Shown: positions 18,543-42,972 of the stretch, piece by piece
Layout of the letters: each line of letters starts with the position of its first letter
Numbering within the stretch: the first letter of the stretch is position 1
Program-made: the position numbers and the translations under genes
NCBI GenBank assembly: GCA_965218375.1
Contig: OZ244618.1
Coordinates: 1,404,950-1,468,949, forward strand
Origin: Alphaproteobacteria bacterium
GTDB lineage: Bacteria; Pseudomonadota; Alphaproteobacteria; G965218375
Reading direction: 5' to 3'
Length of the DNA stretch: 64,000 nucleotides
Notes under the pieces: generated by a model
Database searches by the model: none
What the model was told of the DNA's origin: nothing
Seen by the model: only the letters and a program-made list of their open reading frames with translations

Positions 18543-18566
18543 GCGCATGTACGATAGGAACTATAG

Positions 18567-22882: not shown

Positions 22883-23100
22883 CTGCACGGGTATAATAAA
22901 TTATTTCCATGAAATACTTTATATATATGTTTCCAATTCTTAGGATAGCGATTTTTGGAACATTTGTTTATTTTAGTGGTAAAGCACGCAGCTTATGTAG
23001 TGTATCTTTTCATGGGGGTGTGCGAATTGCAAAATAAGTTTGTGAAGGTTATGAGCAAGAGAAATCTCTTGAAGAAAGCAGGTAAAAGAGTGTTGAGTCT

Positions 23101-25494
23101 ATGACATCATCGAAGTCACGCAAAAATGTCCGTGGAAGTGTGATGCGGTTACAGCGCCCTTCACATGTTCAGGAGGAATCTATCCAAATCCTCCCTGCCG
23201 TTGTATCAATTTTTCTCAAGCGACGATTAATTGAGCTTCTGGGTGTGGTTCCCTTAGTTTTAAGTGGAATAGGGTTTTTGGCGCTATTATCTTATCATTC
23301 TGATGATCCGAGCTGGAATGTTATCACGGAAGCAGCACCCTCAAATTTAATGGGTGTCGTGGGAAGTCACGGAGCTGATTTCTTGTTTCAACTTTTGGGA
23401 CAGGCCACTTATATTCCGTTTTGGTTTTTGTTGTTCTTAGGTATCAGGATTATTCGGCATAAGGGAATGCAACGATTTTTCCTTCACCTTATTATGATGC
23501 TCTTGGCGACTCTTTGTACTTGTATTGCGTTATCGTTATCTGTGACCCCTGAACAAGGTGGCGCGATTGGGGTGTTGGCCTTGCACCACGCGATTAGTGG
23601 ATTGAAATTAATGGGTCTAACCCCACAAATTATGGTGTTCTCAAGCATCATGTGGGTTTTTGGGACGGTGTTCCTCATCCTGTCTATGGCCCTTACCTTA
23701 TATGATTGGCAGTTACTTTTTGTGAAGGTGATACGTTTTGTCTCTTTTACGTTTCAGACACTTTGGCGGGCAGTGGTGTTCATGGCCCGTGTGCGGTTTT
23801 TATTTGCCCCTAGCAGCGATCAGGCGGACGACCCTCGCGCCTTTGATCACGACTTAGAGAAGAAATCCCCGAAGAGTCCAGAGGTTAAGCAAGAAAATGA
23901 GCCACAAAAGAAGAGGGTTAAACCAGCTTCTAAGGGCGTTAAAGATAAGTGGGATAATAAAAAACTCAAGGTGGAACCAAAACCTACCCTATTAGGACAA
24001 AAGGTTCCTGCGCTCTCTCTGCTCAAAGCCGCACCTGAGACGTTTACCAAACGGGATCCCATAGATCTGGAACATAGGGCGCGAATGCTAGAGGGCGTAT
24101 TAAAAGATTTCGGCGTTTATGGAGAAATTTCTGAGATTCGTCCAGGTCCTGTGGTAACTGTTTATGAACTACTCCCAGCAAAAGGGACCAAAACCAGTCG
24201 TATTATCGGATTAAGTGATGATATCGCCCGAACTATGTCGGCGATCAGCGTTAGGTGTGCCGTCATTCCTGGTCGTGCAGTGGTGGGTATTGAAATGCCC
24301 AACGACATTAGGGAGGATGTCTATTTGCGGGATATTCTTGAAAGTTCTGAGTTTCAAGAGGCAACTGGTGACCTTAATATTGTCCTGGGTAAAGATATTG
24401 AGGGCAAACCAGTTATTGCAGATTTAACCCGCATGCCCCATATGTTGGTTGCAGGAACTACAGGATCAGGAAAGTCCGTAGGGGTCAACGCGATTATATT
24501 AAGTCTTTTATTCAGGTATACTCCTGATGAATTACGCATGATTATGATTGATCCCAAGGTGCTTGAGTTGTCTGTTTATGAGAATATTCCGCACTTGTTA
24601 ACCCCAGTGGTGACCGACCCCCACAAATCCGTAGCGGCTTTAAAGTGGGCGGTGCGCGAAATGGATCAACGTTACCGCCAGATGGCGCAATTAGGCGTTC
24701 GCAATGTTGCCAATTATAATGAAAAGTTACGTCACGCCATCGAGAGTGGTGAAACGCTTAAGCGTGAAGTTCAAACTGGATTTAACAGCGACACGGGTGA
24801 ACCTATCGTTGAAATACAAGAATTAGACCTTGAGCCATTCCCATATATTGTCATTATCGTTGATGAGTTTTCAGATTTAATGATGGTTGCGGGGAAAGAT
24901 GTTGAGTTGTGCGTGCTGAGGATTGCCCAAAAGGCCCGTGCGGCGGGTATTCACCTTATTATGGCAACTCAAAGGCCTTCTGTTGACGTGGTCACAGGAA
25001 CCATTAAAGCTAACTTCCCCAGTCGAATTAGTTATAAAGTCACCAGTAAAATTGACTCTCGTACCATTCTAGGTCAGCAAGGGGCGGATCAATTATTAGG
25101 TATGGGGGATATGCTCTATATGTCCATGAGCGGCAACCTGATGCGGGCTCATGGCCCTTTTGTCAGTGATGATGATGTAGAGAAGGTTGTGAAATATATC
25201 CGCTCTACGGGACGGCCTGCCTATATGAATGATATTTTCTCAGAAATTGAAGAGGGGGAGAACGACTCGCGTGATCCCTTATTTAATTCAGATTCTGGCG
25301 AGGATAACGATCTGTATGAACAAGCCCTCGGCATTATCCGAAAACATAAAAAGGTGAGCACAAGCTTTATTCAACGCTACTTAAAGATTGGCTATAATCG
25401 CGCTGCGCGCCTTGTTGAGAGGATGGAAGAAGAAGGGGTGATCTCTGAAGCTAACCATGCAGGAAAACGCACCATTCTGATAGATTTAGATTAA
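23101..25494 (+). CDS. ftsK: DNA translocase FtsK
   Basis: N-terminal 4 TM helices, a Pro/Lys-rich linker, the RecA-like motor (Walker A GTTGSGKSV), and a C-terminal gamma domain (winged helix). Confidence 0.95.
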   Translation: MTSSKSRKNVRGSVMRLQRPSHVQEESIQILPAVVSIFLKRRLIELLGVVPLVLSGIGFLALLSYHSDDPSWNVITEAAPSNLMGVVGSHGADFLFQLLGQATYIPFWFLLFLGIRIIRHKGMQRFFLHLIMMLLATLCTCIALSLSVTPEQGGAIGVLALHHAISGLKLMGLTPQIMVFSSIMWVFGTVFLILSMALTLYDWQLLFVKVIRFVSFTFQTLWRAVVFMARVRFLFAPSSDQADDPRAFDHDLEKKSPKSPEVKQENEPQKKRVKPASKGVKDKWDNKKLKVEPKPTLLGQKVPALSLLKAAPETFTKRDPIDLEHRARMLEGVLKDFGVYGEISEIRPGPVVTVYELLPAKGTKTSRIIGLSDDIARTMSAISVRCAVIPGRAVVGIEMPNDIREDVYLRDILESSEFQEATGDLNIVLGKDIEGKPVIADLTRMPHMLVAGTTGSGKSVGVNAIILSLLFRYTPDELRMIMIDPKVLELSVYENIPHLLTPVVTDPHKSVAALKWAVREMDQRYRQMAQLGVRNVANYNEKLRHAIESGETLKREVQTGFNSDTGEPIVEIQELDLEPFPYIVIIVDEFSDLMMVAGKDVELCVLRIAQKARAAGIHLIMATQRPSVDVVTGTIKANFPSRISYKVTSKIDSRTILGQQGADQLLGMGDMLYMSMSGNLMRAHGPFVSDDDVEKVVKYIRSTGRPAYMNDIFSEIEEGENDSRDPLFNSDSGEDNDLYEQALGIIRKHKKVSTSFIQRYLKIGYNRAARLVERMEEEGVISEANHAGKRTILIDLD

Positions 25495-25500
25495 AAAAAT

Positions 25501-25526
25501 AGAGCCCCTCCATGGGAGGTGACTCT
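25501..25526. terminator. bidirectional terminator hairpin between convergent ftsK and dnaJ
   Basis: AGAG-cc-CCTCC-atg-GGAGG-tga-CTCT imperfect hairpin in the 45-bp gap. Confidence 0.5.
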
Positions 25527-25539
25527 ATATGAACTTAAT

Positions 25540-26664
25540 TTAGGGGCCGAGGTTATCAAAAAAATCTTTTACCTTTGAAAAGAACCCTTCACTATGGGGG
25601 TTATGGTAGCTTGGGTCTTCATTAAATTCATTCAAAAGCTCTTTTTGTCTCTTTGATAAACTAACGGGTATTTCAACAATTGCCTCCACATACATATCTC
25701 CACGGGCGGAGCTGCGCATCTGGTTCATCCCCTTGCCACGAATACGGAATTTCTTTCCAGATGGCGTCCCATCAGGGATTTCAAGGCTAATGAGTTGACC
25801 ATCAATGGTTGGCACTTCCACGTTACCTCCAAGAGCCAGAACGGTCATCGGTATCGGGACTTGACAGAAAATATGAATCCCGTCACGGTGGAAAATATGA
25901 TGGGGTTTAACATTGATAAAGACATAAAGATCACCATTACCGGCGCCATGGTGTCCCGCATCTCCGTCACCGTTTTTGCGAATTCTGGTATCGTCATCAA
26001 TTCCAGCAGGCACGTTGATAGAGATATTTTTTTTGAAGGGGCTTTTACCTAAACCATTACAGGTTTTACAGTGTTTAGAGATAAACATCCCCTGTCCCTG
26101 ACATTTGGAACAGGTCTGCTCAATGGTAAAGAATCCTTGGGATGTGCGCGTTTTTCCATGACCATTACAGGCAGTACATTTTTTTAAGTCCTTATCAGAA
26201 AACGCTCCAGAACCATTACAGCTTGAACACTTCTCACTCTTGTTAATGGTAAATTCTTTGACTACCCCCCTAAAGGCTTCCTCAAGGGTGATTTCCATAT
26301 TGTAACGTAAGTCTGATCCGCGATTATTTTGTTGTTGACGACCGCCGCCGCCCATGAATCCATTGAAAATATCATCAAATATATCGGAAAACCCGCCACC
26401 ATTGGGATTATTTCCGCCGCCGCCCATGCCACCTTCAAACGCTGCATGACCATAGCGGTCGTAAGCGGCGCGTTTTTCTGGGTCCTTCAGAATGGAATAA
26501 GCTTCATTACATTCTTTAAAAAGTTTTTCTGCTTTGGCATCATTAGGATTACGGTCTGGATGATACTTCATTGCCAATTTTCGATACGCAGATTTTAACT
26601 GCTTTTCATCTGCATCTTTCGAAACACTTAGGATTTCATAAAAGTCTCGGTTTGTGTTTGACAT
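25540..26664 (-). CDS. dnaJ: chaperone DnaJ
   Basis: J-domain with HPD (KYHPDRNP), a G/F-rich linker, and four CxxCxGxG zinc-finger repeats. Confidence 0.95.
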   Translation of the reverse strand: MSNTNRDFYEILSVSKDADEKQLKSAYRKLAMKYHPDRNPNDAKAEKLFKECNEAYSILKDPEKRAAYDRYGHAAFEGGMGGGGNNPNGGGFSDIFDDIFNGFMGGGGRQQQNNRGSDLRYNMEITLEEAFRGVVKEFTINKSEKCSSCNGSGAFSDKDLKKCTACNGHGKTRTSQGFFTIEQTCSKCQGQGMFISKHCKTCNGLGKSPFKKNISINVPAGIDDDTRIRKNGDGDAGHHGAGNGDLYVFINVKPHHIFHRDGIHIFCQVPIPMTVLALGGNVEVPTIDGQLISLEIPDGTPSGKKFRIRGKGMNQMRSSARGDMYVEAIVEIPVSLSKRQKELLNEFNEDPSYHNPHSEGFFSKVKDFFDNLGP

Positions 26665-26761
26665 AGTTCACTGATCTTTCTGAAATTTATAGACCTGATC
26701 TTTATCAGTAAAGAGATGGTCCTTGGACCATCTCTAATATAGGTAATTTCTTCAGATCAGT

Positions 26762-28669
26762 TTATTTATTATCTTTTGGGGTATCATCATTAACTTCTTC
26801 AAAGTCAGCATCAATGACATTATCATCTTCTGAAGAATTTGGAGAAGATGCATCACCGGTTTGTGGGCCTGCTTGACTCATGACTTCAGTAAGCTTCATG
26901 GCAACTTGAGAGAGTTCTTGGATTTTTTGCTCAATGTCTGCCTTGTCACTTCCTTTGGCAGCAGCATCAACCTCAGCGAGTTTTTCATCAATTGCTGACT
27001 TATCTTCAGGATTGAGGCCACTTCCATGTTCATCCAACATTTGTTGTGTAGAGCTTACAAGGGCATCCGCTTGATTTTTGGTTTCAATAAGTTCGCGCTG
27101 GACTTTGTCTTTTTCAACATTATCCTCCGCATCCTTAACCATTTTCTCAATTTCTGCATCAGAAAGACCACCAGAAGATTGAATTCGGATTTTTTGCTCT
27201 TTGCCTGTCTCTTTATCTTTTGCACTGACGTTAACAATACCATTGGCATCAATATCAAAAGTCACTTCAATTTGGGGAACACCACGTTTGGCTGACGCAA
27301 TACCCACAAGGTCAAACTGTCCAAGCATTTTATTGTCAGAGGCTATTTCCCGTTCCCCTTGGGCAACACGGATAGTAACAGCTGATTGGTTGTCTTCTGC
27401 AGTAGAGAAGACTTGGGATTTCTTGGCTGGAATGGTGGTATTACGGTCAAGAAGCCGCGTGAAAATGCCGCCCAGAGTTTCGATTCCTAAAGATAATGGT
27501 GTGACATCTAAAAGGAGGACGTCTTTAATATCCCCTTGAAGAACCCCTCCTTGGATGGCAGCACCTGCGGCAACAACTTCATCAGGGTTCACGCCTTTGT
27601 GGGGCTCTTTACCAAAGAAGTCTTTCACCACTTCTATAATTTTGGGCATTCTGGTCATACCACCGACCAAAATCACTTCATCAATATCTTCAGCCTTCAT
27701 GTTGGCATCTTTGAGAGCTGCTTTACATGGTTCAATCGAACGCTTCACCAAGGCCTCTACCAAGGATTCATATTTGGTACGACTGATTTTGATGGTTAGG
27801 TGTTTTGGTCCTGTTTGATCCGCAGTGATGAACGGCAAGTTAACTTCGGTCATCGTTGAGCTTGACAGTTCAATTTTAGCTTTCTCAGAAGCTTCTTTTA
27901 ACCTTTGTAAGGCGAGGGGATCTTTGCTGAGGTCAATGCCGTTTTCTTTTTTAAACTCACTGGTTAAGAAGTTGACAATGCTGATATCAAAGTCTTCACC
28001 ACCAAGGAAGGTGTCACCATTAGTGGACTTGACTTCAAAAACACCATCACCAATTTCCAGAATTGAGACGTCAAAGGTTCCACCACCTAAGTCGTAAACT
28101 GCGATTGTTTTTCCATCTTTCTTGTCAAGACCATAGGCAAGTGCAGCGGCAGTTGGTTCGTTTATGATACGTTTTACTTCAAGACCGGCAATTTTACCCG
28201 CATCTTTGGTTGCTTGGCGCTGGCTATCATTGAAGTAAGCGGGAACAGTAATAACAGCTTCGGTTACAGTTTCACCAAGGAAACTCTCAGCTGTTTCTTT
28301 CATTTTTTGGAGTATCATAGCGCTTACTTGGGAAGGGGATAATTTTTCATTATCAACTTGTAACCATGCACCATCGTTACTTCCTTTAATAATCGAATAA
28401 GGACTGTTTTTTATGCACTTTTCAACTTCAGGGTCGCTAATCTTACGTCCAATAAGACGTTTTGCAGCGAATAAGGTCCCTTTAGGATTCGTGACTGATT
28501 GACGTTTGGCTGGAAGACCAATAAGTCTTTCCCCGTCTTTAGTAAAACCAACAACTGAAGGTGTTGTCCGACCGCCTTCAGAGTTTTCAATAATTTTTGG
28601 ACTTGCTCCGTCCATAACCGAAACACATGAATTAGTTGTGCCAAGGTCAATACCAATAATTTTAGACAT
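26762..28669 (-). CDS. dnaK: chaperone DnaK (Hsp70)
   Basis: 635 aa Hsp70 with [18 protein letters not shown] and [11 protein letters not shown] motifs. AAGGAG RBS present. dnaK-dnaJ operon. Confidence 0.97.
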
Positions 28670-28891
28670 TTTATGCTCCTTAAGTGGCGGAACTCGGTAG
28701 CCTCAAATCTGAGCGCACACGCGTTCCCCTGCAAACAATAAATAAAAGGATATATGTAAAGTATCCTTAAAAATATGATAATCTACCGAAAATGATTAAT
28801 CAATAGTCTCATTTAAGTTCAATATAATTGAATAATTGAGAATTATCAATAACCCGAAAAAAATTTTTATTAAGCTATAATATTAACGCCT

Positions 28892-29785
28892 TTATCCGCG
28901 CCCTTGATTTTTAAGGAAGGCCTCGACCTCTGCGCGGGAGGGGGAGGAGGCAGCGCCATGTTTAGTCACATGTAGGGCAGCAGCAGCGCTCGCCATTCGC
29001 AGAGCGTCCTTGAAGGGCTTTTTTTGAGAGACCTCCGCCATAAAAAACCCACAAAAGCAATCCCCAGCTCCCGTGGTATCTTTCACCTCTACGGGGAATG
29101 CAGGTTGATGGAGTGTGCCTTCTTCCCCTTGATAGGTAACGCCATTGGCGCCATCTGTGATGATCAAGTGCCGAATATTGAGGAGTTTTGCACTCAGTCT
29201 TTCGCGGTCAACTTGGAGCTCTTTTGCGATTTCTGTCGCTTCATGGTGATTGACAATCAGGATGTCGCAATAGGGAATAAGAGCCACCGTGACTTTAGGC
29301 AGAAAGGGCGCGGCATTGTAGGCAAGAGGAATGAAGAGTGCGCGCGCTGCTTTGGCAAACTCTAAGGCACCAGTGGTTTCATTTTGCAATAGTGCCCAGT
29401 CAGATGGTTCCTTGTCCATTAAAGTTTCTTGTGCATCATTTATATCAATGCTGTGATTGGCGCCAGGGTGCAGAATAATTTGATTTTCCCCATGTGAGTT
29501 GACATAGATGATGGCATGACCCGTAGGGGCGCTCACGTGTTGAACATGGTCGGTGCGTAGATTATTTTCCGACATCTCCTTAAGGATCCATGTATCTTGA
29601 GGGTTAACGGCGCCAATATGGGTTACATCTGCGCCCGCTTTAATAAGTGAGAGTGATTGATTGAGACCCTTACCGCCTATGGCGTATGAAAAATGCGTGC
29701 TCGTTAAGGTCTCTCCCGCCCGTGGAAGGTGGGGGATTTGGTACGTGTAGTCAATATTGATTGAGCCGAGATTAAATATTGTCAT
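28892..29785 (-). CDS. PfkB-family carbohydrate kinase (ribokinase-like)
   Basis: N-terminal GSINIDY and the C-terminal GAGD.F anion-hole motif (DTTGAGDCFCGFF). Start at the internal ATG (MTIFNLGS). Confidence 0.8.
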   Translation of the reverse strand: MTIFNLGSINIDYTYQIPHLPRAGETLTSTHFSYAIGGKGLNQSLSLIKAGADVTHIGAVNPQDTWILKEMSENNLRTDHVQHVSAPTGHAIIYVNSHGENQIILHPGANHSIDINDAQETLMDKEPSDWALLQNETTGALEFAKAARALFIPLAYNAAPFLPKVTVALIPYCDILIVNHHEATEIAKELQVDRERLSAKLLNIRHLIITDGANGVTYQGEEGTLHQPAFPVEVKDTTGAGDCFCGFFMAEVSQKKPFKDALRMASAAAALHVTKHGAASSPSRAEVEAFLKNQGRG

Positions 29786-29864
29786 AAGGGATGTTATCTG
29801 TTGAGTCTGGTATGAAAAAAAGGATACGGGATGAAAAAGATTTATATAAAACTTATAAGGGAGT

Positions 29865-31898
<2,034 letters not shown>

Positions 31899-31996
31899 CT
31901 AACTAATTTCTATCCATAAAGGATTAAATTTTATAAAAGGAATAACCCGCCTAGGGATTAAAATAAACTTTATGATTTATAAGGGGATCTTGATAA

Positions 31997-32281
31997 TTAA
32001 CGCGGTTGCTTACGCGCACCCATTATTTTAATACATAAGCCTTTAGGGACAAGTATCCACTCTTCTTTAATTGGTAAGCCTGACGCCGTCTCACCACAGG
32101 TGTTTTCTTTTAAGCTACAGTCCGCTTTTCCCTTTTTGACTATACCATAACACTTTTCATAGACTATACCCGTGGCATCTTGATTCTTAATGGGCTGAGC
32201 ATAAGAGTGAGTATCAATAAAAATTAACACACCAGCTAATAGCGTATAAGTAAAATATCGTAAGGTGAGCCTATGTATCAT
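31997..32281 (-). CDS. DUF2282-family secreted Cys-rich peptide (bufferin BufA2-like precursor)
   Basis: Signal peptide, then EKCYGIVKKGKADCS...C.G......EW.LVPKG.C, the DUF2282 signature with four conserved Cys. Confidence 0.7.
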   Translation of the reverse strand: MIHRLTLRYFTYTLLAGVLIFIDTHSYAQPIKNQDATGIVYEKCYGIVKKGKADCSLKENTCGETASGLPIKEEWILVPKGLCIKIMGARKQPR

Positions 32282-32329
32282 CAATTTACCCCTAACTATT
32301 TATTATAATTACTCATTCATTATACGATA

Positions 32330-33274
32330 TTATTCAAAATTAGAAATAGCCTTATTTATGGAATCTAGGGAGTTATTTACAATATTTCTGCCAATATCGA
32401 TTAATTCTTCTGCTTTATCAAATTCTAGGAAGTTGATATGGGAGACATCTGGACATAAAAGCACATCAGGGGGGGTGTTTGTAAGGATTGTCTGGGTAAT
32501 GTTTTTTTGCATGATATTACTCGACATAATCAGCGTATCTATGATGCTGGGGGCACCCTCCTGGTTTCTTAAAAAAGAGGTAATATTTAGCTTATAAGGC
32601 GGTTTATTTTTAGGGGTATTTGAGTAACTAACCTGATTATATACAGGGGCCTCTGGTGGTGGATCTGATTTAATTTGTGGGCTTATAATCGGTTCTTTAC
32701 CTTGTTTAACAGATAGACTGACGGCAATAACAATATCAGCTCCAAAGCTTTGTGCCATAGTAATCGGGATTGGGTTGATTAATCCGCCATCAATGAGAAT
32801 ATGATCACCTAAGGTTACTGGACTAAAAATACCAGGAATAGCATAGGAGGCGCGCAGCGCATGGGCCAGCATGCCGCTTTGCATCCAATACTCACTGCCC
32901 GTCGCAAGTTCAGCGGCCACGCAGCCGAAACGAATGGGCAAGTCTTCTATATTGATCTTACCAATATGTTTTTCGAACTCGTCCATTAGTTTTTCACCCT
33001 GTAACACCCCGCCCCCAGTGACATGGATATCGAGAAAACGAAGAAGACGGAATGTCGTTAAACGACGGGTCCACTCTTCCAGGGCCTCAAGCCGTCCAGC
33101 AGCGTAACAGCCGCCAACAACCGCCCCGATAGATGTACCTGTAACAACATATGGTTTAATATTGTTTTCAAGCAGATGTTGAATAATACCAATATGAACC
33201 CACCCGCGACCGCCGCCACTTCCTAAGGCCAGCCCGATAACAGGTGCTTTACGTTTGGCCTTGGAGTGTCGCAT
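32330..33274 (-). CDS. patatin-like phospholipase (RssA family)
   Basis: Oxyanion motif GLALGSGGGRG, nucleophile elbow GTSIGA, and a DGG catalytic Asp. Confidence 0.85.
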   Translation of the reverse strand: MRHSKAKRKAPVIGLALGSGGGRGWVHIGIIQHLLENNIKPYVVTGTSIGAVVGGCYAAGRLEALEEWTRRLTTFRLLRFLDIHVTGGGVLQGEKLMDEFEKHIGKINIEDLPIRFGCVAAELATGSEYWMQSGMLAHALRASYAIPGIFSPVTLGDHILIDGGLINPIPITMAQSFGADIVIAVSLSVKQGKEPIISPQIKSDPPPEAPVYNQVSYSNTPKNKPPYKLNITSFLRNQEGAPSIIDTLIMSSNIMQKNITQTILTNTPPDVLLCPDVSHINFLEFDKAEELIDIGRNIVNNSLDSINKAISNFE

Positions 33275-33523
33275 TTTTCGGAAGAAATTTTGCAAAATTT
33301 ATGCTCCTCATAATTTGCTTCATATCACTCTAATTATATAATAATTTTAATATATTAGGGGAACAAAAACCATTATAGTTTTCAGAGAGGCATAAAAGAA
33401 CTTCTGACCATGCCCCCGCGAGAGGGCATTGTGGAGAAGGTGACAGGGGGGGATATGCCATTTTGAAGGGGCGACTACTTTGGGCCCTCAATCATGATAA
33501 TTTCTGTGCGTAGGGGGAGGGGA

Positions 33524-34129
33524 TTATGACGCTTTGATGGCGGCCATTATCTTGTTAAAGCGCGCAAGATATTCAGTCTTTTGGGTGTTGGGAGGACTGG
33601 GGATAATGGGTATATCTTGAATTTTTTTCAGTGGGACACAAAATAACTTTTTTGCCTCATCTTCTGTAAATCCCCCCAATTTTATCGCTTCAAAATATGC
33701 AGAGAGTTTATCGGCACGTTTGATCAGCTTGCGTATGTCTTCGGGGATCTCACCTTGCAGACCAAATCGTATATGAATAGCCGTTTGTAATCGACTTTCG
33801 ATGACCTTGTAGTCATTTCCAATAATGGCTTTGAAGGGAGAGATTAAGTCACCAATAACGTATTCTGAGGCGTCATGAAGAAGGGCAGCTAATTGCCATA
33901 TTGGTGCAATATCTCTCTTTAGCCGTGTGAGAATATCAACCACAAGCACGGAGTGCTGCGCCACGGAGTAAGCCCACTCCCCCCGCGTTTGGCCATTCCA
34001 TCGTGCTGTGCGTGACAATCCATGGGCAATATCTTCAATTTCTATATCCATGGGAGATGGATCCAGAAGGTTAAGCCGACGGTCACTTAACATACGTTGC
34101 CAAGCGCGAGGTTCTGAAGAGCGAGCCAT
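33524..34129 (-). CDS. HD-domain phosphohydrolase (YfbR/5'-nucleotidase-like)
   Basis: HD motif LLHDASEYVIGD with an upstream H...H pair. Confidence 0.7.
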   Translation of the reverse strand: MARSSEPRAWQRMLSDRRLNLLDPSPMDIEIEDIAHGLSRTARWNGQTRGEWAYSVAQHSVLVVDILTRLKRDIAPIWQLAALLHDASEYVIGDLISPFKAIIGNDYKVIESRLQTAIHIRFGLQGEIPEDIRKLIKRADKLSAYFEAIKLGGFTEDEAKKLFCVPLKKIQDIPIIPSPPNTQKTEYLARFNKIMAAIKAS

Positions 34130-34186
34130 AATCAACAGGTGTTTACAGAATAATAAGCGAGCAACATCTTCTTAAAGTCTAAAATA

Positions 34187-35350
34187 CTAATGCCAATTAT
34201 ATAATCTGTCTTTATAGGGAAAGTTAGGTAATATTTTCTGCATTATAAACTTGCGAATATTATGCCAGTACGTTCCGAATAGGATAAAGGAGAAGCTTAT
34301 AACCAAAATCATGTTGATGGTACCAAAACCAGAATCCGTTTTAAAAGGCGTAAGGTCAGAATATATGAAAGAGTACAGCAGAGCTGTGACAAGAAATGAC
34401 TTTCTATCCACTACAATGGCGAGCGTTAAAGCGAATACAAGAATTAGACAGAGAATAATAAGGTTTAAAGTCGTGGATGCTGGAAGATTCATTGTGATGA
34501 ATCTCATGAATAATGGACCGAAAATGGCAAAGTTCCAGAACGCAATTCTTGATTCTTTATTTTCTCTTTTTGGGTCTTTGACCTCAAAGTAAAGGGCAAC
34601 ACTTAAAACCGTGATAGATAATATCCCAAAGGGGAGAGAGAGAATAAAAGTGGTATTCCATTGAAGGAGAGCTGGTAGTGTGCCTGTTAAATCTGCTATG
34701 TAAAATGCCCATGCGTATATAGTCATAAGTATTGATATGTATATGGGAATTAAACTAAAGTAGATTTTTGTGAAAAAATAGTAGGCAACACTTAAGGTTA
34801 AAGTAATGAATAAAGTATATTTAAGTACATTCACAGTTCTACTTATATCAATATTAGTAGGTTCGAAAGATGACGTTACTGACTTTGTCGTCTCTGACGT
34901 TTCACCAGATTTGTCATTAGATGTCATTTTATAATTATAATTATAAGTATATGAAAATGATGAGAATGAAGACTTTATATTACCTATCATCTCGCCTTCA
35001 GGTGCTCCTGTACTGCAGATTAAAAATGTCAAACTAACGGTAAGTTTGATAAGTAAGAAAAAAGCAAGAGCGGTTGTTAGGATACCTGGAAAAGACATTC
35101 CTCGAGAATGGTAGTAGTATTTAGCCGTAAAAGCAGAGAGTACCCACAGTGCAGCCATAGAAAAGAAATACCCATAATTATTAAAATTTGTTGACTTGAA
35201 CATCATAATAGCAATGAATACAATGATCGAAATAGAAATTAGAATTTCGGTTGTACCTTTAAAGGCTACGAACTTTTCTGATTCGTTTGTTGAAGTCGCC
35301 TTTGGTGTTTCGTCATTGTCTATAAATTCAGGAGCTGAGTCTTTTTTCAT
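34187..35350 (-). CDS. polytopic integral membrane protein, about 10 TM helices, function unknown
   Basis: 387 aa with a hydrophilic N-terminus, multiple hydrophobic 20-aa segments, and a Ser/Thr/Tyr/Asn-rich loop. No recognisable family. Confidence 0.45.
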   Translation of the reverse strand: MKKDSAPEFIDNDETPKATSTNESEKFVAFKGTTEILISISIIVFIAIMMFKSTNFNNYGYFFSMAALWVLSAFTAKYYYHSRGMSFPGILTTALAFFLLIKLTVSLTFLICSTGAPEGEMIGNIKSSFSSFSYTYNYNYKMTSNDKSGETSETTKSVTSSFEPTNIDISRTVNVLKYTLFITLTLSVAYYFFTKIYFSLIPIYISILMTIYAWAFYIADLTGTLPALLQWNTTFILSLPFGILSITVLSVALYFEVKDPKRENKESRIAFWNFAIFGPLFMRFITMNLPASTTLNLIILCLILVFALTLAIVVDRKSFLVTALLYSFIYSDLTPFKTDSGFGTINMILVISFSFILFGTYWHNIRKFIMQKILPNFPYKDRLYNWH

Positions 35351-35412
35351 ACTGAAACTTTCACGTCTTGTAGATTAAGGTTAAATAAATATGCTAATTA
35401 AATTTTTACTTT

Positions 35413-35424
35413 CTCTCACGTGAG
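35413..35424. promoter_or_regulatory. perfect 12-bp palindrome TCTCACGTGAGA about 65 bp upstream of the membrane-protein gene
   Basis: Seen directly in the sequence. Operator-like. Confidence 0.25.
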
Positions 35425-35543
35425 ATAATAACCTTCGATGATCGTTTGTCAATAAGGTGCTGTACCCCTCTAGGGTCAGAGGTGTTGGTATTGAGGAAAT
35501 AAAATGAGAGAAAAAGGGGGAACTCTTTATTGATAAGCTCTGC

Positions 35544-36209
35544 TTAAAAATCAAGATTACTGTAGGTACTTGGAGGAGAAATGTGCGGAATTCTATCTTT
35601 AAGAATCTCTTTCATGCTTAGACGGGATTTAAACTTTTGGTACCAGTCCATGAGGATGGGCGCCTTGAGCCAGTCAATTTCATTCAGATAGTCAAGACAG
35701 CTTAAATGTCCTGCCAAGGTAATATCCGCCAAAGTCATGGTATCTCCAGAAATCCAGTTACGTTTTTCGAGCAAAAACTCAAAGTATTTAAGGTGAGGTT
35801 TGAGATTTGCGCGTCCGGCACGAATGACTTCACTTTTCGGTTGGGTTTTGTCTTTAAACGGTTTCGTGACGCGTTCATTGACCAGATACCTTGTGACCTC
35901 ATCATAAAATTTATGGTTTATCCAAGAGATGAGACGACGGGTTTCAAGGCGAGATGGGGGGTCGTGGGGTAATAAAACATTTTCTGTGTAGGTGTCTTCA
36001 AGGTATTCGGGAATGAGGTGACCGTCAGGTACAATGGTACCGTTATCCTCAAGTATTGGAACCTCACCAGTAGGGCTGAGTCGGTACAAGTCGGACCCAT
36101 TAGGGCCCATACTTTCAGGGTTAAGGGTGAAATCTAACATCTTTTCCGCAAGGTGGATTCTTGCTATTCGTGATAGGGGATCAAGATATGTGCAGTGTAG
36201 GATGCGCAT
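35544..36209 (-). CDS. glutathione S-transferase family protein
   Basis: 221 aa with a thioredoxin-like N-domain and a helical C-domain typical of GSTs. Confidence 0.7.
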   Translation of the reverse strand: MRILHCTYLDPLSRIARIHLAEKMLDFTLNPESMGPNGSDLYRLSPTGEVPILEDNGTIVPDGHLIPEYLEDTYTENVLLPHDPPSRLETRRLISWINHKFYDEVTRYLVNERVTKPFKDKTQPKSEVIRAGRANLKPHLKYFEFLLEKRNWISGDTMTLADITLAGHLSCLDYLNEIDWLKAPILMDWYQKFKSRLSMKEILKDRIPHISPPSTYSNLDF

Positions 36210-36253
36210 ATAATAAATTAATACTCCTTAAGAAAATAAAGTTGAGGAAAAAA

Positions 36254-37045
36254 CTATTTTGTAAGATGAAGAGTTTTCAATACTTCATCATGTAAACGAG
36301 GGTCTCCAGTAGCAACAATGGTGCTGTCAAAGTTTTTTAAAGTAATTCGGTCGCCTGAGAAGGTTGTTACCCGCCCTCCAGCTTGTTCTATGAGAGGAAT
36401 TAGCGCCATAATATCATAGGTGTTGATGCCAGCTTCGACAACAATATCAGCGAATCCGTGGGCAAGTTGGAGAAAACCAAAGGCGTCCGCACCCATGCGC
36501 GTAAAATAGGTGCGTGCCATCAAGGCATCAAGCCTGGGACGGTTTTCCGTGTCCCAGTACTCAAGACCACTGGTAAAGACGATGGCCTGATTGAGGTGCG
36601 GGCAGGGGCGCGTGGCAACACTTGTGCCATTGATCATGGTTGGTAAACCCTCACCTCCATGCCATGCTTCCCGCAAGATCGCTTGTTCTGCTGCGCCGAA
36701 AACTGGCTGTCCATTTCTTGTGAGTCCGATGAGGGTGGTAAATAGAGGAATTCCAGTAATAAAACTCTTGGTCCCATCAATGGGGTCGAGGCACCAAATA
36801 TATTCTGCATTTGTTTGGACAGAGTCAAACTCTTCGCCAATGATGCCATGGTCGGGAAACTCGGCTTGAATAATTTTGCGCATGGCTTGTTCTGCGTTTT
36901 TATCTGCAAGAGTAACGGGGCTTTGATCCCCTTTACTCTCGACATGAATCGGCCGTCGGTAGAAGGGCAGAATCTCATCGCGCACTGCAGAAAATATCCT
37001 CTGGGTGATATTAATAAAAATGTCGGCGTTCAATGCAATAGACAT
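36254..37045 (-). CDS. inositol monophosphatase family protein (SuhB/HisN-like)
   Basis: IMPase motifs EE...DPIDGT (WCLDPIDGTKSF) and WD..AG. Confidence 0.85.
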   Translation of the reverse strand: MSIALNADIFINITQRIFSAVRDEILPFYRRPIHVESKGDQSPVTLADKNAEQAMRKIIQAEFPDHGIIGEEFDSVQTNAEYIWCLDPIDGTKSFITGIPLFTTLIGLTRNGQPVFGAAEQAILREAWHGGEGLPTMINGTSVATRPCPHLNQAIVFTSGLEYWDTENRPRLDALMARTYFTRMGADAFGFLQLAHGFADIVVEAGINTYDIMALIPLIEQAGGRVTTFSGDRITLKNFDSTIVATGDPRLHDEVLKTLHLTK

Positions 37046-37290
37046 AAGAGGGGCTTTTCCAGATTTTTAGGGGCAAGTTTTAAAGAAGCAGAAAAATCCG
37101 CGCACTCGCTGCTTACGGGATGAATATCCCCTTTTAATATATACCAAAATTTGTTCGAAATAAAACACTATAATTATGATTTATGACCCAGGTAACCTCT
37201 TAAAAATAGGCCATATCTAGGGGTAGGTTCAAGGGAGAGACTCATAAAAGGATAACGCAAAAAAAATCCCTAATACATTTTGTGAGGTAT

Positions 37291-37318
37291 GGCACCTCCC
37301 CCACAAATTGGGGGTGCC
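37291..37318 (-). terminator. stem-loop downstream of the cytochrome c gene
   Basis: GGCACCtCCCCCA-caaat-TGGGGGTGCC, an 11-12 bp GC-rich stem. Confidence 0.4.
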
Positions 37319-37339
37319 AATACAGAAACATTGAGGGGT

Positions 37340-37870
37340 TTATTCAGTGACAAGCTCAACCGGTGATGGGGTCAATGTATTCAAATAACTAATGATATCT
37401 GCCCGCTGCTGATCTTTTTTAAGACCAATATAGCCCATTTTCGTTCCTTTAATATAACTTTTGGGGTTTTGGAGGAAAAGGTTTAATTGTGAAACAGTCC
37501 ACGCACCCTCATGTTCCGTAATGACAGATGAATATGCATAGTCAGAAAGACGCGCAACATCATTCCCAATAACGCCATAAAGATTTGGACCTGTTTTGTG
37601 AGGTTCACCTTCATTAAAGCTGTGACATCCAAGACATTTACTGGCTACTCGTTTGCCACGTTCCGCACTTGCAACAGCAAGAAAAGTGGAAAAGGGAATA
37701 ACTTCCTTTATTTCACCTTCTGGTTTGACTTCTGGAACTTCAATTTGGTATCCACGACTGGTAAGTGTTTCTTTATGGAAAAGAAACCTAGAAATTTCAA
37801 CTAATACAAATAATATGATGCAAGAGGCTAAGACGGCACCTGCCCATTTGTTAAGTGTAAAGTTATCCAT
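37340..37870 (-). CDS. cycM: membrane-anchored class I cytochrome c (CycM-like)
   Basis: N-terminal TM anchor, CLGCH haem-binding motif, and a distal Met ligand region. Confidence 0.8.
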   Translation of the reverse strand: MDNFTLNKWAGAVLASCIILFVLVEISRFLFHKETLTSRGYQIEVPEVKPEGEIKEVIPFSTFLAVASAERGKRVASKCLGCHSFNEGEPHKTGPNLYGVIGNDVARLSDYAYSSVITEHEGAWTVSQLNLFLQNPKSYIKGTKMGYIGLKKDQQRADIISYLNTLTPSPVELVTE

Positions 37871-38313
37871 AATTTATAAATCCTGCTTTAAGACTTCTTC
37901 ATTCATTAAGGAAGCATATGTGTTAAATATTACTGAGTATTTTCGTATTGAATCCATAGATAACTTGATGTGGATCATGACAATCAACACAAAAAAATAA
38001 AAAAAATCTCTTAATAAAAAAAATAATAATTATTATAGTTAATTTTTAACCTAATCTATTTTGTGAGCATGAAGTAACAATGTACATATAATCAATTTTA
38101 TTTTTATATACCAGTGTTTTTATGGGTATTCTTTTTTAATTTAGGTTTATTGGGGGTCAGATTTGTGGTGAGATGACCTAAAAAATACAGAGTATTCAGA
38201 ATTTTTTATTTTGTTGAGAAAAAATATATAAAATAAATTAAGAAATATCAGATTATTTCTAATCTATTTTGTATTGTCTATGTTTATTAATTTTAAATGA
38301 GATTTGAGAGACT

Positions 38314-39165
38314 ATGACCAAAGTTATCGCATTTCAGGGCGCACATGGTGCAAATTCAGAAATAGCATGTTCGTATTTTTGTTCGGAATCTGAGACGGTG
38401 CCCTGTGAAACTTTTGAAGATACCTTTGATACCTTACTTGAAGGACGCGCGAATCTCGCTATGATTCCCATTGAGAATAGTCAAGCTGGTCGTGTTGCAG
38501 ACGTTCATAATTTGTTACCGGAATCCAGACTGAGCATTGTTGCGGAACATTATCAACCAATTTATCATCACCTTCTTGCGTTACCAAATGTACCGTTTTC
38601 CAATATTAAGCAGATTCGTAGTCACACCATGGCGCTGGCCCAATGTCGGGAGAAACTCCGTAAGTGGGGGGTGTCGTGTCATGTGAGTGCTGATACTGCA
38701 GGCGCTGCCCGTGATCTTGTTTTATCTCAAGACCCAACTGTTGCGGTGGTTGCAACACGTCTGGCTGCTGAGATTTATAAGTTAAATATTCTTGAGGAAA
38801 ATATTGAGGATTCTAGCGACAATATGACCCGATTTGTGGTGTTATCAAGGCAAGAAGACTGGCCTTCAATAAATGTAAAGTCTATGACCACGATTATTTT
38901 CTGCCTTAAAAGTTTGCCGTCAGCCCTATATAAATGTTTAGGGGGATTTGCGACGAATAAAATTAATGTTACTAAAATTGAGAGTTACGTATCTTGGGGT
39001 AACTTTAATGCAGCACAGTTTTATATGGACTTTGAGGGGCATCCTCATTCTGAAGATGTTGCCCTTGCCCTTGACGAATTGCGGTATTTTTCTACGGATA
39101 TGCGCATTATTGGCGTGTACCCCCAATCACCATACCGTCAAAGTATGCGCGAAGTTAAAGCGTAG
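38314..39165 (+). CDS. pheA: prephenate dehydratase
   Basis: PDT catalytic domain (TRF motif in SDNMTRFVVL), ESRLSIV, and a C-terminal ACT domain. Confidence 0.9.
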   Translation: MTKVIAFQGAHGANSEIACSYFCSESETVPCETFEDTFDTLLEGRANLAMIPIENSQAGRVADVHNLLPESRLSIVAEHYQPIYHHLLALPNVPFSNIKQIRSHTMALAQCREKLRKWGVSCHVSADTAGAARDLVLSQDPTVAVVATRLAAEIYKLNILEENIEDSSDNMTRFVVLSRQEDWPSINVKSMTTIIFCLKSLPSALYKCLGGFATNKINVTKIESYVSWGNFNAAQFYMDFEGHPHSEDVALALDELRYFSTDMRIIGVYPQSPYRQSMREVKA

Positions 39166-39217
39166 GGGTGAGGGGGGAGTTCACGTGTTGCGAGGGAAGT
39201 TAACGTCCATGGGCGCT

Positions 39218-39646
39218 TTATTTGCGCGCTCCGACAAAAATCCCCGTTAAGACCATACCCACAAGACCAATAACCGTTACTGCAGTACTGCCTACCAGAA
39301 AGTCTAAAACATTATCAGGAAGGAAAAAGTGAGCAAATAGCCATTGTTTGAGGCCATGGGCAACGATAATCAATGTCACAACCGTGCAATAGATGCACAT
39401 GAAGATGTATGCCCTGTTCGCATAGGGTTTAATAAGTTGATTAAGGATTGTCGAGGCTTCATTCAGGTTACGGTTTTCTGTGATTAAGTCCTCATTTTTG
39501 CTGCCGACTGCCGCAAATGTTTTAAGCAAGACTTTTATATCTTTTAAAGAGTCGCTGGCGTCAGAGTCGCTCGTAAAGGTATCGGGTGAGGCGGTCTCAA
39601 TGTCTTTTATATCAACTTTTATGTTCTTTTGTTTCTCGTCCTGCAA
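39218..39646 (-). CDS. small protein with an acidic/Ser-rich N-terminal half and two C-terminal TM helices; candidate toxin partner of the DUF4065 gene
   Basis: 142 aa. TTG start overlaps the last 35 nt of the upstream DUF4065 gene, with AAGG 8 nt upstream. No family recognised. Confidence 0.45.
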   Translation of the reverse strand: MQDEKQKNIKVDIKDIETASPDTFTSDSDASDSLKDIKVLLKTFAAVGSKNEDLITENRNLNEASTILNQLIKPYANRAYIFMCIYCTVVTLIIVAHGLKQWLFAHFFLPDNVLDFLVGSTAVTVIGLVGMVLTGIFVGARK

Positions 39647-40100
39647 GTGCCAACCTTGTAAAATAATCTGAAATTACTGTGTTTTTTATAATTGTATTTC
39701 TGCCACTTTTAATATAGGCCACGTACCATGGCGACCCGAGCTGGTGTGTCATTTCTGAGAGGTCTTTTCCCGTAAAGGAGCCATATTTTTCCCATACCTT
39801 TTCAATTATGTCTTTTTCTGGTCTGTTCATCTCTGTAGTATATGGCTTGTTTGTGCCTGGACGCACAAGTCTACCTGTTTTCTTGTCGCACTTATAGTCA
39901 CGTAAATGATTCCAGAGTGCGCGAATTACAGGTCCCCCATCCCACGCTTCAAATTCATCGTTGATCAGTGACGTCTTATGAATTGCTAGGTGCCACCCAC
40001 ATGTGAAAAAAATGAGTTTTTGGAGTTTCATTTGAGAAATTTCTTCGCCATTGATCTCAATGAAAGAGTTGGCAACGGCTCGAGAATCATAATTAGCCAT
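39612..40100 (-). CDS. DUF4065 / Panacea-domain protein (PanA/SocA-like antitoxin)
   Basis: 162 aa. AVANSFIE...MKLQKLIFFTCGWHLA...EFEAWDGGPVIRALW matches the DUF4065 core (A..vAnyfl...i..lkLqKLlYy.qgwhLa...plf.e.feAW..GPV...y). Confidence 0.75.
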   Translation of the reverse strand: MANYDSRAVANSFIEINGEEISQMKLQKLIFFTCGWHLAIHKTSLINDEFEAWDGGPVIRALWNHLRDYKCDKKTGRLVRPGTNKPYTTEMNRPEKDIIEKVWEKYGSFTGKDLSEMTHQLGSPWYVAYIKSGRNTIIKNTVISDYFTRLALAGRETKEHKS

Positions 40101-40428
40101 TTTTGTTAATACCTTAGTTTCTGTTCAACAAGCAAATTATATAACAAACGCCCAATAAATTCTACACTATAAATGAATGGGGGGATTATTTTAACAAAAA
40201 TAGGGATTATTTACTGCGGTGTCCTTTATTTTAGGGATACCCATGCATATATAAGCCTTATAGGTATCTTACCGATTAATTTGAGATGAAGATATATAAC
40301 CTAAAATTTTTAGGGCGAATTATTCTATGTAGTGTGTGGGCTTATTTTCCACATATAAAAAAGATATTATTTGAGCTTTCTAAAGAAGCTATGGTTGGTG
40401 AGGCGTTTACACGTGAAGAATTTATAGT

Positions 40429-41265
40429 TTATGTGTCATCGTCTTGAGAGTATTTGGGTATTTTTAAGGAGATAGCTATGTCGTTTGTTTCTGAATTTAC
40501 AGTGGTTGCTTCGTTACTGTTTTGCCACTTTTTCATGTTGACCATGGCAAGCCCAGCAGCTTTAAAGGTGCTGAGAGTCGTGCCAATCTCAATATCTCCA
40601 GCAAAAACACGGGAATGATGGGGAAGGGGCGTCTCGTCAAGGGATGTGACCAAAACCAGACGTTTCTTAATGGCGTTGCGGTAGTGGGTGCGCGCCGTAA
40701 CTTCCTGACCAACGTAGCACCCTTTTTTAAAGTCAACACCGTTGGTTTTGTCTGCCCAGATTTCTAAGGGTAAGGTTTTATTAAAAACCCAGTCTCTAAT
40801 TCCATCCGTTAATCCTAGCGCGTGGCGGTGACGGTCAAATTCTCCGAGGGTTGTGGTCAGGTTATCGGGCGCAGCGTCTTCTGGAAGGATCACCCACCAC
40901 CCTGAATCTTCTAAGCGCGGATCGGGGAAAATAATCCAATCATTTTGCCCCCCCTGTACTGGAGCGGTGGCATGGGCAATACGGGCGTCACGATGAACAA
41001 TATCAACCCGTGAGCGCAGCTTGTACATGTTCAGCCGCGTCGTAAGTTCCTGGGCGTTGTCTTTATCGATAAGTATCTTCAAAGGGTCTTGACCAATAAT
41101 AAAAAAGTCAGCGATCATTTTTCCTTGAGGGGATAGCAGCGCACTATATACAGCGTTTTTATCATCTACACGCTCAACGTCTTGTGTGATCAAACTTTGT
41201 AAGAAGGGCCGTGTATCTGCGCCTGATACTTCGATGACGGTTTTATGGGAAAGGGCGGCGAGCAT
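40429..41265 (-). CDS. ygfZ: folate-binding Fe-S cluster repair / tRNA-modification protein YgfZ (GcvT-like)
   Basis: K-G-C-Y-x-G-Q-E signature (KKGCYVGQEVTARTHYRN) in a GcvT-like fold. Confidence 0.8.
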   Translation of the reverse strand: MLAALSHKTVIEVSGADTRPFLQSLITQDVERVDDKNAVYSALLSPQGKMIADFFIIGQDPLKILIDKDNAQELTTRLNMYKLRSRVDIVHRDARIAHATAPVQGGQNDWIIFPDPRLEDSGWWVILPEDAAPDNLTTTLGEFDRHRHALGLTDGIRDWVFNKTLPLEIWADKTNGVDFKKGCYVGQEVTARTHYRNAIKKRLVLVTSLDETPLPHHSRVFAGDIEIGTTLSTFKAAGLAMVNMKKWQNSNEATTVNSETNDIAISLKIPKYSQDDDT

Positions 41266-41384
41266 ATAAAAGAACCTTGTAACATGAAAGCGTGGGCTTT
41301 ATAGTTTGCGATGAGTGAATTTTTGTTCATATATAAAATCACCGTTCACCATATCTGATAACCTGATTCTTGTATATTAAAATT

Positions 41385-42950
41385 ATGAGTTGTGTTGATT
41401 TGCAACGGACACAGAGGTTCGACCCTTTACAAGTTGTGAAAACTTATTTTGGTTTTGCATCCTTTCGTGGACAGCAGGGGCATATTATCCGTAACATTTT
41501 ATCGGGTCATGATGTCTTGGCCATACTCCCAACAGGTGCGGGTAAGTCTTTATGCTATCAGGTTCCGGCCTTATGTTTAGAGGGTACCGCTCTTGTGATA
41601 AGTCCTTTGGTCGTGCTGATGGAGCAGCAGGCGCAACTTTTGCGGGATAAAGGTATTGCCGCAGCCGCGTTTCATTGTGGCCGTGCGCCGAAAGACCTCT
41701 CAACAGATATGAAGTTATTTGCTAAAGGGTCTTTAAAAGTGGCCTTTATTTCACCTGAACGGGTTATCGACCAATACTTTCAAGGCTTACTTGATCACGT
41801 TAAGTTAAGTTTAATCGCCATTGATGAGGCCCATTGTATATCAGAATGGGGGTACGATTTTCGACCAGAGTATGGACAATTATCACAAATTTTGAAGCGT
41901 TATCCCCGTATACCTAAGCTAGCTTTAACCGCAACGGCCTCCCCTCGGGTGCGCGGCGATATTTTAAATAGTCTTGGCCTCACAAGTGTCTTGGTCTTTA
42001 GCGAGAGTGTAGATCGTTTAAACTTATCTTTAAATGTTTATCCGAAACAGCAATTTCGCGCGCAGCTTGTGCGCTTTCTTAACCAGCACGCACACCTTGG
42101 GACGGGGTTAATTTATTGTCAGACGCGCAAGCAGGTTAACTCATTACACCTGTATTTGAATGGGTGCGGTTTTGAAACAGAGCCCTATCATGCGGGCTTA
42201 CCTCAGGATGAACGCCAGCGGGTTGCAGATATTTTTATCCAAGGCAAGGCGCCTCTGGTTATTGCAACGGTTGCGTTTGGTATGGGGGTCAATCGTTCTG
42301 ATGTCCGTTATGTTCTTCACGCGGATCCGCCTCGGAGTTTAAGCGCGTATGTCCAGCAAATTGGCCGTGCTGGTCGAGATGGCGTGCGGTCAATGACGGG
42401 CTTGTTTAGTGGGTTATCTGATATACAGCGTATTTGCCTTTTATTACAACGGGAACCGAAAAAATCCCTCAGGGAACAAAGGGTAGGGGAGTTTTGTGAT
42501 GTGGTGAAGTTTGCTGAGTCTCGGCTCTGTCGTTGGCAGTTCTTGCGGGTATACTTTGGCGAAGAGAAAGGCAAAGAGTGCGGGCAGTGTGATCGGTGCT
42601 GTCAAGATGTTAAGTGGATAGATGGTGCACTGTATGCACAAATGCTTCTAAGTGCCATATATCGGTGCGGAGTCGGCGTTGATACGCGTCATATTATTGA
42701 TGTGGTTATGGGACGCAGAACCCCCTATGTGGAGCGGTTTTCCTTTCAATTCCTAGGGGTTTTTGGCCAAGGCGCTGACCTCTCACGGGCATCATGGAGA
42801 TACCTCCTTAGGTGTTTAATTGGGGATCGTTTAATTGAGGTGGTGGGAGATCAATACCAAGCGTTCTTACGCGTCAATGAGAAAGCGCGTCCCCTCTTAA
42901 AAGGCGAGTGTGCATATGAAATTCCAGATCCCTTTTCCGCGCCCTGTTAA
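41385..42950 (+). CDS. recQ: RecQ-family ATP-dependent DNA helicase (short form: helicase plus zinc/winged-helix region, no HRDC)
   Basis: GFASFRGQQ, PTGAGKSLCYQ, DEAHCISEWGYDFR, and a 4-Cys zinc motif (C...C..C..C). Start at ATG 41385. Confidence 0.8.
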   Translation: MSCVDLQRTQRFDPLQVVKTYFGFASFRGQQGHIIRNILSGHDVLAILPTGAGKSLCYQVPALCLEGTALVISPLVVLMEQQAQLLRDKGIAAAAFHCGRAPKDLSTDMKLFAKGSLKVAFISPERVIDQYFQGLLDHVKLSLIAIDEAHCISEWGYDFRPEYGQLSQILKRYPRIPKLALTATASPRVRGDILNSLGLTSVLVFSESVDRLNLSLNVYPKQQFRAQLVRFLNQHAHLGTGLIYCQTRKQVNSLHLYLNGCGFETEPYHAGLPQDERQRVADIFIQGKAPLVIATVAFGMGVNRSDVRYVLHADPPRSLSAYVQQIGRAGRDGVRSMTGLFSGLSDIQRICLLLQREPKKSLREQRVGEFCDVVKFAESRLCRWQFLRVYFGEEKGKECGQCDRCCQDVKWIDGALYAQMLLSAIYRCGVGVDTRHIIDVVMGRRTPYVERFSFQFLGVFGQGADLSRASWRYLLRCLIGDRLIEVVGDQYQAFLRVNEKARPLLKGECAYEIPDPFSAPC

Positions 42951-42972
42951 CTAAAAACCTATAGGGGGGGGG

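Follow-up and report, generated by a model that had tools for sequence, protein, structure and literature searches.

A divergent bufferin 1 (DUF2282) precursor gene without adjacent maturation genes in a small alphaproteobacterial genome

Introduction

Bufferins are among the largest families of RiPPs, and what their many stand-alone precursor genes do is an open question in the field. The window analysed here, by which we mean the whole stretch of 64,000 nucleotides of DNA, raises this question for a small Cys-rich exported peptide of the DUF2282 family: what becomes of such a precursor when the genes for an MNIO (DUF692) enzyme and its DUF2063 partner do not stand beside it? The initial annotation of the locus proposed three alternatives, namely that the modification enzymes are encoded elsewhere, that the peptide works unmodified, or that the gene is a decaying remnant. 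This proves to be the right set of possibilities, and is largely the one stated in a 2025 survey, but the last of the three is weakened by the intact reading frame and by the gradient of conservation described below. For stand-alone precursors the published discussion offers modification in trans or no modification, and it doubts that every such cluster is functional (PMC12452194). The copy in the window makes a clean test case, being a single gene in a small genome that encodes a conserved scaffold with unique changes at the three most conserved non-Cys positions of the loop.

The gene and its expression signals

The peptide gene and the signals around its start are as follows.

31997..32281, minus strand: coding sequence of the DUF2282/BufA1-family precursor, from the ORF list, the sequence and the PF10048 match
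32281-32279, minus strand: ATG start codon
31999-31997, minus strand: TAA stop codon
32289..32293, minus strand: Shine-Dalgarno-like AGGGG, 7 nt 5′ of the ATG, a putative function assigned from the sequence
32282..32329, minus strand: AT-rich spacer of 48 nt between the stop codon of the patatin gene (32332-32330) and the ATG

The 285 nucleotides of the coding sequence specify 94 amino acids and a stop codon, and the peptide reads EKCYGIVKKGKADCSLKENTCGETASGLPIKEEWILVPKGLC; both the location of the reading frame and the portion of sequence quoted in the initial annotation are as stated there. An alternative TTG at 32284, one codon 5′ of the ATG, accounts for the 95-residue version in the mechanical ORF list. 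The identical 94-residue protein is annotated as a gene in two public assemblies. We regard it as confirmed that the gene is real and intact and that its product is a small, exported protein with four Cys residues, belonging to the copper-binding bufferin 1 family.

The 48-nt spacer contains two TATAAT hexamers on the minus strand, at 32324-32319 and 32307-32302, and no −35 element. A promoter scan found no site in the spacer, and the region shows no excess over shuffled controls; a terminator scan of the minus strand found none between the patatin gene, the peptide gene and fadH. Co-transcription of the peptide gene with its neighbours is possible. The GC3 of the gene, 0.35 compared with 0.33 for dnaK, is host-like, and recent horizontal transfer was rejected on this composition.

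Family assignment

The initial annotation had suggested an HMM search for DUF2282 under the accession PF09911. That accession is wrong, the correct one being PF10048, and against this profile the peptide scores 52.3 bits (E = 5.7e-14), compared with a gathering cutoff of 22.4. The match spans profile positions 2-50 of 53, covering 49 of the 53, and by its score is far beyond chance. The current Pfam name for DUF2282 is BufA1, and the precomputed label of the protein is PF10048:BufA1. That the product belongs to DUF2282, begins with a signal peptide and has the Cys pattern of the family, as the initial annotation described it, is upheld by this match, by the sequence pattern and by the alignments.

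Its designation as BufA2-type does not hold, since DUF2282 defines the Buf1/BufA1 family and not BufA2 (PMC11626156; PMC12452194). Buf2/BufA2 (BUF_6/12Cys; NF050166) does resemble the window peptide in being a Sec-exported, Cys-rich periplasmic RiPP precursor, and the predicted folds of the two families are similar (PMC11626156). A weak match of the peptide to the NCBIfam equivalog model NF050166 Cu_RiPP_BufA2 (E = 0.018) could likewise be taken to favour a Buf2 identity. At 15.3 bits, however, the match falls far short of the 60 that the model requires, and BufA1 proteins encoded in canonical operons also cross-match it weakly, at 25-29 bits, so that the match of the peptide is best explained as generic cross-family similarity. 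Buf2 precursors, moreover, have six or twelve Cys residues and belong to another HMM family, whereas the window peptide has four and passes the Pfam BufA1 model. Membership of BufA2 is refuted by the PF10048 match, the sub-cutoff NF050166 score and the same cross-matches from BufA1 proteins, and we allow it next to no probability. NCBIfam itself appears to have no Buf1-specific model, since the canonical BufA1 proteins that we scanned matched none.

Signal peptide, mature domain and predicted fold

The precursor divides into two parts.

32198..32281, minus strand: predicted Sec (SPase I) signal peptide, residues 1-28, from hydropathy and sequence pattern
32000..32197, minus strand: mature domain of 66 residues, from alignments and models

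The signal peptide has an n-region with R4 and R8, an h-region FTYTLLAGVLIFI and a c-region THSYA, in which Ser occupies position −3 and Ala position −1; cleavage is predicted between A28 and Q29. The hydropathy window reaches its maximum of 2.44 at residues 12-22, the hydrophobic core comprises 13 residues, and inspection of the sequence reveals no lipobox Cys in the signal peptide. With its 94 residues and this putative cleavage site, the peptide conforms to the combination of a Sec signal peptide and a length of 80-120 residues that characterises BufA1.

The mature part aligns without gaps with canonical Buf1 sequences. Its four Cys residues, C44 (CysI), C55 (CysII), C62 (CysIII) and C83 (CysIV), fall in columns that are Cys in 154/154 related domains, and these four are the sole invariant columns of the 118-sequence alignment. 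The scaffold motifs EKCYG, W75, P79, G81 and G88 are also retained. AlphaFold2 was run twice, with alignments of 22 and 118 sequences, and returned the same topology both times, with strands at residues 41-45 (which include C44) and 75-79 and a short helix at 82-84 (which includes C83). The scaffold is modelled with pLDDT values of 84-93 and the loop between CysII and CysIII with values of 61-64; residues 1-30 have low pLDDT in both models. This predicted topology matches the published description of BufA1 as a two-stranded sheet, with a disulfide joining strand 1 to a short helix and with the modified Cys residues in a loop (PMC11626156). Foldseek and sequence searches of the PDB gave no meaningful match to the peptide.

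Among the closest known relatives is the bufferin 1 precursor BufA1 of Caulobacter vibrioides (CCNA_03363; PMC11626156). The two share the PF10048 family, the length range of 80-120 residues, the Sec signal peptide, four Cys residues at the same alignment positions and the EKCYG, W and VP.G.C motifs; both are predicted to form a two-stranded sheet and a short helix, strand 1 carrying CysI and the helix CysIV. They differ in genomic context, in that the window gene is not part of a bufABCD operon and has no sigF/nrsF nearby, and in sequence, in that the window peptide replaces the Asn of NDC by Ala, the Gly two positions past CysIII by Glu, and the conserved Asp of the loop by Leu.

Absence of partner genes from the neighbourhood

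The genes on either side lie on the same strand and are the fadH and patatin genes that the initial annotation had named.

32330..33295, minus strand: patatin-like phospholipase (PF01734), 48 nt upstream of the peptide gene
29865..31895, minus strand: FadH-like Oxidored_FMN and Pyr_redox_2 flavoprotein, 101 nt downstream of the peptide gene

The locus can be followed beyond the window on a 79.5-kb ENA twin contig (ERZ25073827 contig_33), which is 99.94-99.98% identical to the window and covers about −3,480 to +72,500 in window coordinates, thus reaching ∼3.5 kb further to the left and ∼8.5 kb further to the right. The two sequences differ by 0-2 mismatches and 2-10 gap openings per 11-21-kb segment, mostly single-base gaps, and this near-identity, broken almost by gaps alone, indicates that the same organism has been assembled twice.

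The statement that no DUF692 or DUF2063 gene lies in the 64 kb is borne out in two ways. The precomputed Pfam annotation of the twin contig (∼76 kb) contains no PF05114 (MNIO/DUF692), PF09836 (DUF2063), PF07681 (DoxX) or NrsF match. We also took related loci as the source of our own HMMs for MNIO, DUF2063 and DoxX, whose seeds Pfam confirmed at 339, 68 and 56 bits respectively, and used these models with --max (filters off) to scan all six-frame stop-to-stop segments of at least 30 residues in the window. The MNIO and DUF2063 models scored at most 4.2 bits, which is noise, and the single DoxX match, of 11.9 bits, falls opposite the GCS2 gene, on the other strand, and reflects chance. A bufB/bufC pair placed just outside the window, another arrangement that the initial annotation had considered, was looked for in the 3.5 kb and 8.5 kb that the twin contig adds, and none was found. 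Neither an intact nor a degraded buf partner is present in the window or the ∼12 kb of extra flank, which confirms the gene as an orphan at the level of its locus. A search with an MNIO profile gave no match on the 1,999,363-bp contig of the host among the best 120 of 8,000 candidates listed.

These surroundings bear on the possibility of a decaying remnant, a gene that recently lost the rest of its operon in the course of genome reduction and has no function left. Its orphan position between unrelated housekeeping-type genes would fit such a history, as would the small host genome, which suggests reductive evolution. Nevertheless, no fragment of bufB, bufC or bufD is present nearby in any frame; since no such fragments remain, any loss of the operon must be old and not recent, and an old loss conflicts with the preserved scaffold. 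Also at odds with decay are the intact reading frame with its start codon, RBS-like element and complete signal peptide, and the host-like composition.

Stand-alone DUF2282 genes in other genomes

The rarity of the arrangement that was implied by the initial annotation is not borne out. A sizeable share of Buf1 precursors are stand-alone in published surveys (PMC12452194). Of 80 related loci, ∼66 place an MNIO gene immediately downstream of the precursor, with DUF2063 and in most cases DoxX after it, and ∼10 have no MNIO gene within 10 kb. The arrangement in the window is only mildly unusual at the locus level. Complete genomes that have DUF2282 and lack any MNIO gene, by comparison, number 21 of 4,072 (∼0.5%; PMC12452194 Table 3). 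Set against ∼10% of stand-alone genes, this suggests, as a rough estimate, that most stand-alone copies share their genome with an MNIO gene.

Among the Legionellaceae, the stand-alone DUF2282 genes of Fluoribacter gormanii, Legionella bozemanae and L. wadsworthii (L009, L013 and L016; ∼9900-12000) have a common context. In each, DUF2282 is followed by YceI, cytochrome b561 and YceI genes, the group lies downstream of biotin-synthesis-like genes, and MNIO is absent for 10 kb around; one subgroup of Buf1 thus seems to have a recurring neighbourhood that is independent of MNIO. The window has neither a YceI nor a cytochrome b561 gene and so lacks this context, and these three Legionellaceae copies, unlike the window peptide, keep both the NDC motif and D69. 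The extra Buf1 copies of Legionella pneumophila subsp. fraseri (PMC12452194) resemble the window gene in having no adjacent MNIO or DUF2063 gene, but in Legionella several MNIO loci are found in the same genome.

Two further loci come from Reyranella (L067 and L068) and one from a Rhodospirillaceae MAG (L057). These are alphaproteobacterial DUF2282 genes that, like the window gene, have no adjacent MNIO/DUF2063 pair, and neither partner is found in the locus. In each case a DoxX gene directly follows DUF2282, which looks like a bufA-bufD pair without maturase genes, whereas the window has no DoxX gene.

Divergence from the family and signs of selection

A word-index homology search of 5.8 billion clustered proteins returned only the peptide itself and no close homologue. 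An exhaustive HMMER search of 1.84 billion representatives gave 275 relatives, the best of which, a two-domain protein, is 39% identical overall. The three best non-self matches (P0002, P0003 and P0004) are tandem two-domain DUF2282 proteins of 174-198 residues, that is, Buf1/Buf1 fusions. When scored with a family HMM built without it, the peptide reaches 71.4 bits compared with a median of 94.3, and lower scores are found in just 11 of 154 domains.

Three substitutions account for its most distinctive features. Residue 53, the Asn of the NDC motif in 152/154 family domains, is Ala in the peptide (N53A), which is the sole domain of 155 with Ala at this position. Residue 64, two past CysIII, is Gly in 125/154 and Glu in 0/154, and is Glu in the peptide (G64E); residue 69, in the loop, is Asp in 120/154 and Leu in 0/154, and is Leu in the peptide (D69L). 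The combination of all three occurs in no other of the 154 related domains. The peptide therefore departs from the family at each of the near-invariant loop residues (the Asn of NDC, the Gly and D69) around the modified Cys residues. As placed by the alignment, the three changes cluster beside the two modifiable Cys residues, in what corresponds to the modified, copper-binding loop, and they could mean that the peptide is no longer a canonical MNIO substrate. A literature search found no role assigned to any of the three residues N53, G64 and D69, and the sequence next to the Cys residues is described in one study as poorly conserved among DUF2282 substrates (PMC13097082). For these reasons we treat the substitutions as a lead and not as proof of lost modifiability.

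Elsewhere the peptide follows the family in proportion to the constraint on each position. It matches the consensus at 12 of the 13 positions conserved at 85% or above, at 6 of the 12 conserved at 60-85%, and at 7 of the 24 variable ones, a pattern of substitution that indicates that the peptide has been under selection. Two observations of this section could be claimed for a remnant, namely that the peptide is the most divergent among its relatives at otherwise near-invariant positions and that no close homologue exists among the 5.8 billion clustered proteins. Long neutral drift, on the other hand, would not give such a gradient of conservation, which together with the intact reading frame and signal peptide and the host-like codon composition argues against a long-decayed remnant and also against recent transfer. 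We consider it quite improbable that the gene has no function left. The peptide adds a divergent member to a family already known, and its genomic arrangement has been described before.

Proposed function

The reading that we prefer, and to which we give about an even chance, is that the gene encodes a stand-alone Buf1 precursor that the Sec pathway exports, that a disulfide between C44 and C83 stabilises, and whose maturation in trans yields a thiooxazole-bearing copper chelator of the periplasm, as in Caulobacter. The disulfide, the modification in trans and the copper binding are what we infer for the window peptide. On this proposal C55 and C62 would most likely be converted to 5-thiooxazoles in the cytoplasm, prior to export, by an MNIO enzyme of the BufB type and its DUF2063 partner, the genes for which would lie elsewhere in the ∼2.0-Mb chromosome, more than ∼35 kb away. 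Sec export to the periplasm and removal of the signal peptide would leave a 66-residue domain that would fold as a two-stranded β-sheet and a short helix, held together by the CysI-CysIV (C44-C83) disulfide, with CysII (C55) and CysIII (C62) carried on a flexible loop. The mature peptide would then chelate periplasmic copper by analogy with Caulobacter Buf1, for which such chelation has been shown (PMC11626156).

The chemistry known so far needs no adjacent genes, since the signal peptide is dispensable for modification and BufB and BufC suffice (PMC11626156). Modification in trans is favoured because just 21 of 4,072 DUF2282 genomes are MNIO-less even though stand-alone precursors are common (PMC12452194). 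Against it stand the lack of a partner in ∼76 kb and the three unique changes that the alignment places in the loop. Redundant buf loci are also less to be expected in a genome of only ∼2.0 Mb than they are in Legionella. The small genome and the unusual loop led us to set our confidence in maturation in trans below the estimate that genome statistics would give.

The main rival reading has the peptide as a functional periplasmic protein of the BufA1 fold that is unmodified by MNIO, the bufBC genes having been lost from the lineage or never present, and with its Cys residues as ordinary thiols or thiolates. In such a protein the C55-x6-C62 pair could be a site for Cu(I) or some other thiophilic metal, or the protein could be a small redox or disulfide protein. 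Consistent with this are the lack of partner genes in ∼76 kb, the small genome and the low score of the peptide on the family HMM. N53A, G64E and D69L flank the modifiable Cys residues while the scaffold and all four Cys residues are kept, as would be expected if the constraints of enzyme recognition had been relaxed and the fold and thiols still mattered. Published discussion also allows that stand-alone precursors 'are not modified', and 21 genomes with DUF2282 and no MNIO gene are listed there (PMC12452194). Those genomes are rare, however, at 0.5% of DUF2282-bearing complete genomes, and copper binding in Caulobacter uses thiooxazoles, with 2N/2S coordination (PMC11626156). The substitutions may, in addition, be tolerated by MNIO enzymes, given the low conservation noted around the target Cys residues (PMC13097082) and that no experimental role is known for N53, G64 and D69. 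We judge a functional but unmodified peptide to be somewhat unlikely. A stronger form of the idea, in which the ∼2.0-Mb genome has no MNIO or DUF2063 gene at all and the peptide represents a DUF2282 lineage independent of RiPP maturation, acting as an unmodified periplasmic protein that binds metal or does redox chemistry through its thiols, we think unlikely.

What the peptide can tell us depends on which of these holds. Were the genome to have no MNIO gene, it would follow that selection can preserve the BufA1 fold even where no thiooxazoles are formed; with an MNIO gene in the genome, as our preferred maturation in trans supposes, the peptide would show how much change around the target Cys residues a maturase accepts. 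Either outcome would be an incremental contribution and not a new kind of system, and the case would gain moderate interest only should the genome turn out to have no MNIO genes.

The host and other features of the window

The host genome is ∼2.0 Mb in size, with a GC content of 42%. The peptide, FadH and DnaK each form a singleton cluster at 90% identity and occur only on the 1,999,363-bp NCBI contig and the ENA contig. The named neighbours of DnaK are all Alphaproteobacteria, mostly Hyphomicrobiales, at 73-76% identity, and the ahcY-HPr-EIIA(Man)-DUF2336 arrangement and the ATP12 gene are features that, from known gene distributions, we take to fit the Alphaproteobacteria. Together these mark the host as a deep-branching, poorly sampled alphaproteobacterium.

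Several genes that are intact in the window are split in the ENA twin: the AdoHcyase gene (3435..4730) is in 4 pieces, the FtsK gene (23101..25494) in 2, and an open reading frame of 1,133 residues (43873..47274) in 4. Since the assemblies differ almost only by gaps, we attribute these splits to indel errors in the ENA assembly and not to real pseudogenes. The 1,133-residue protein, encoded on the minus strand, has a C-terminal response-regulator receiver (residues 904-1004) as its sole above-threshold Pfam match; there is a sub-threshold dCache match, and the ∼900 N-terminal residues have no recognised family.

Two further loci may be mentioned. A SocA/Panacea-domain antitoxin-like gene at 39612..40100 on the minus strand (PF13274, 76.6 bits) is overlapped by a 142-residue reading frame at 39218..39646, also on the minus strand, that has no Pfam match, and the two may form a toxin-antitoxin pair of the PanA type whose toxin is unclassified. 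The gene at 34187..35350 on the minus strand, two upstream of the patatin gene, encodes a predicted multi-pass membrane protein of 387 residues, with no Pfam match and with an unusually low GC content of 0.34 compared with 0.42 for the window. In an Rfam scan of the window (1..64000) no family reaches its gathering score, and hence no tRNA is found. GC skew is positive in every 4-kb bin of the window (1..64000), from which it follows that the whole window lies on one replichore.
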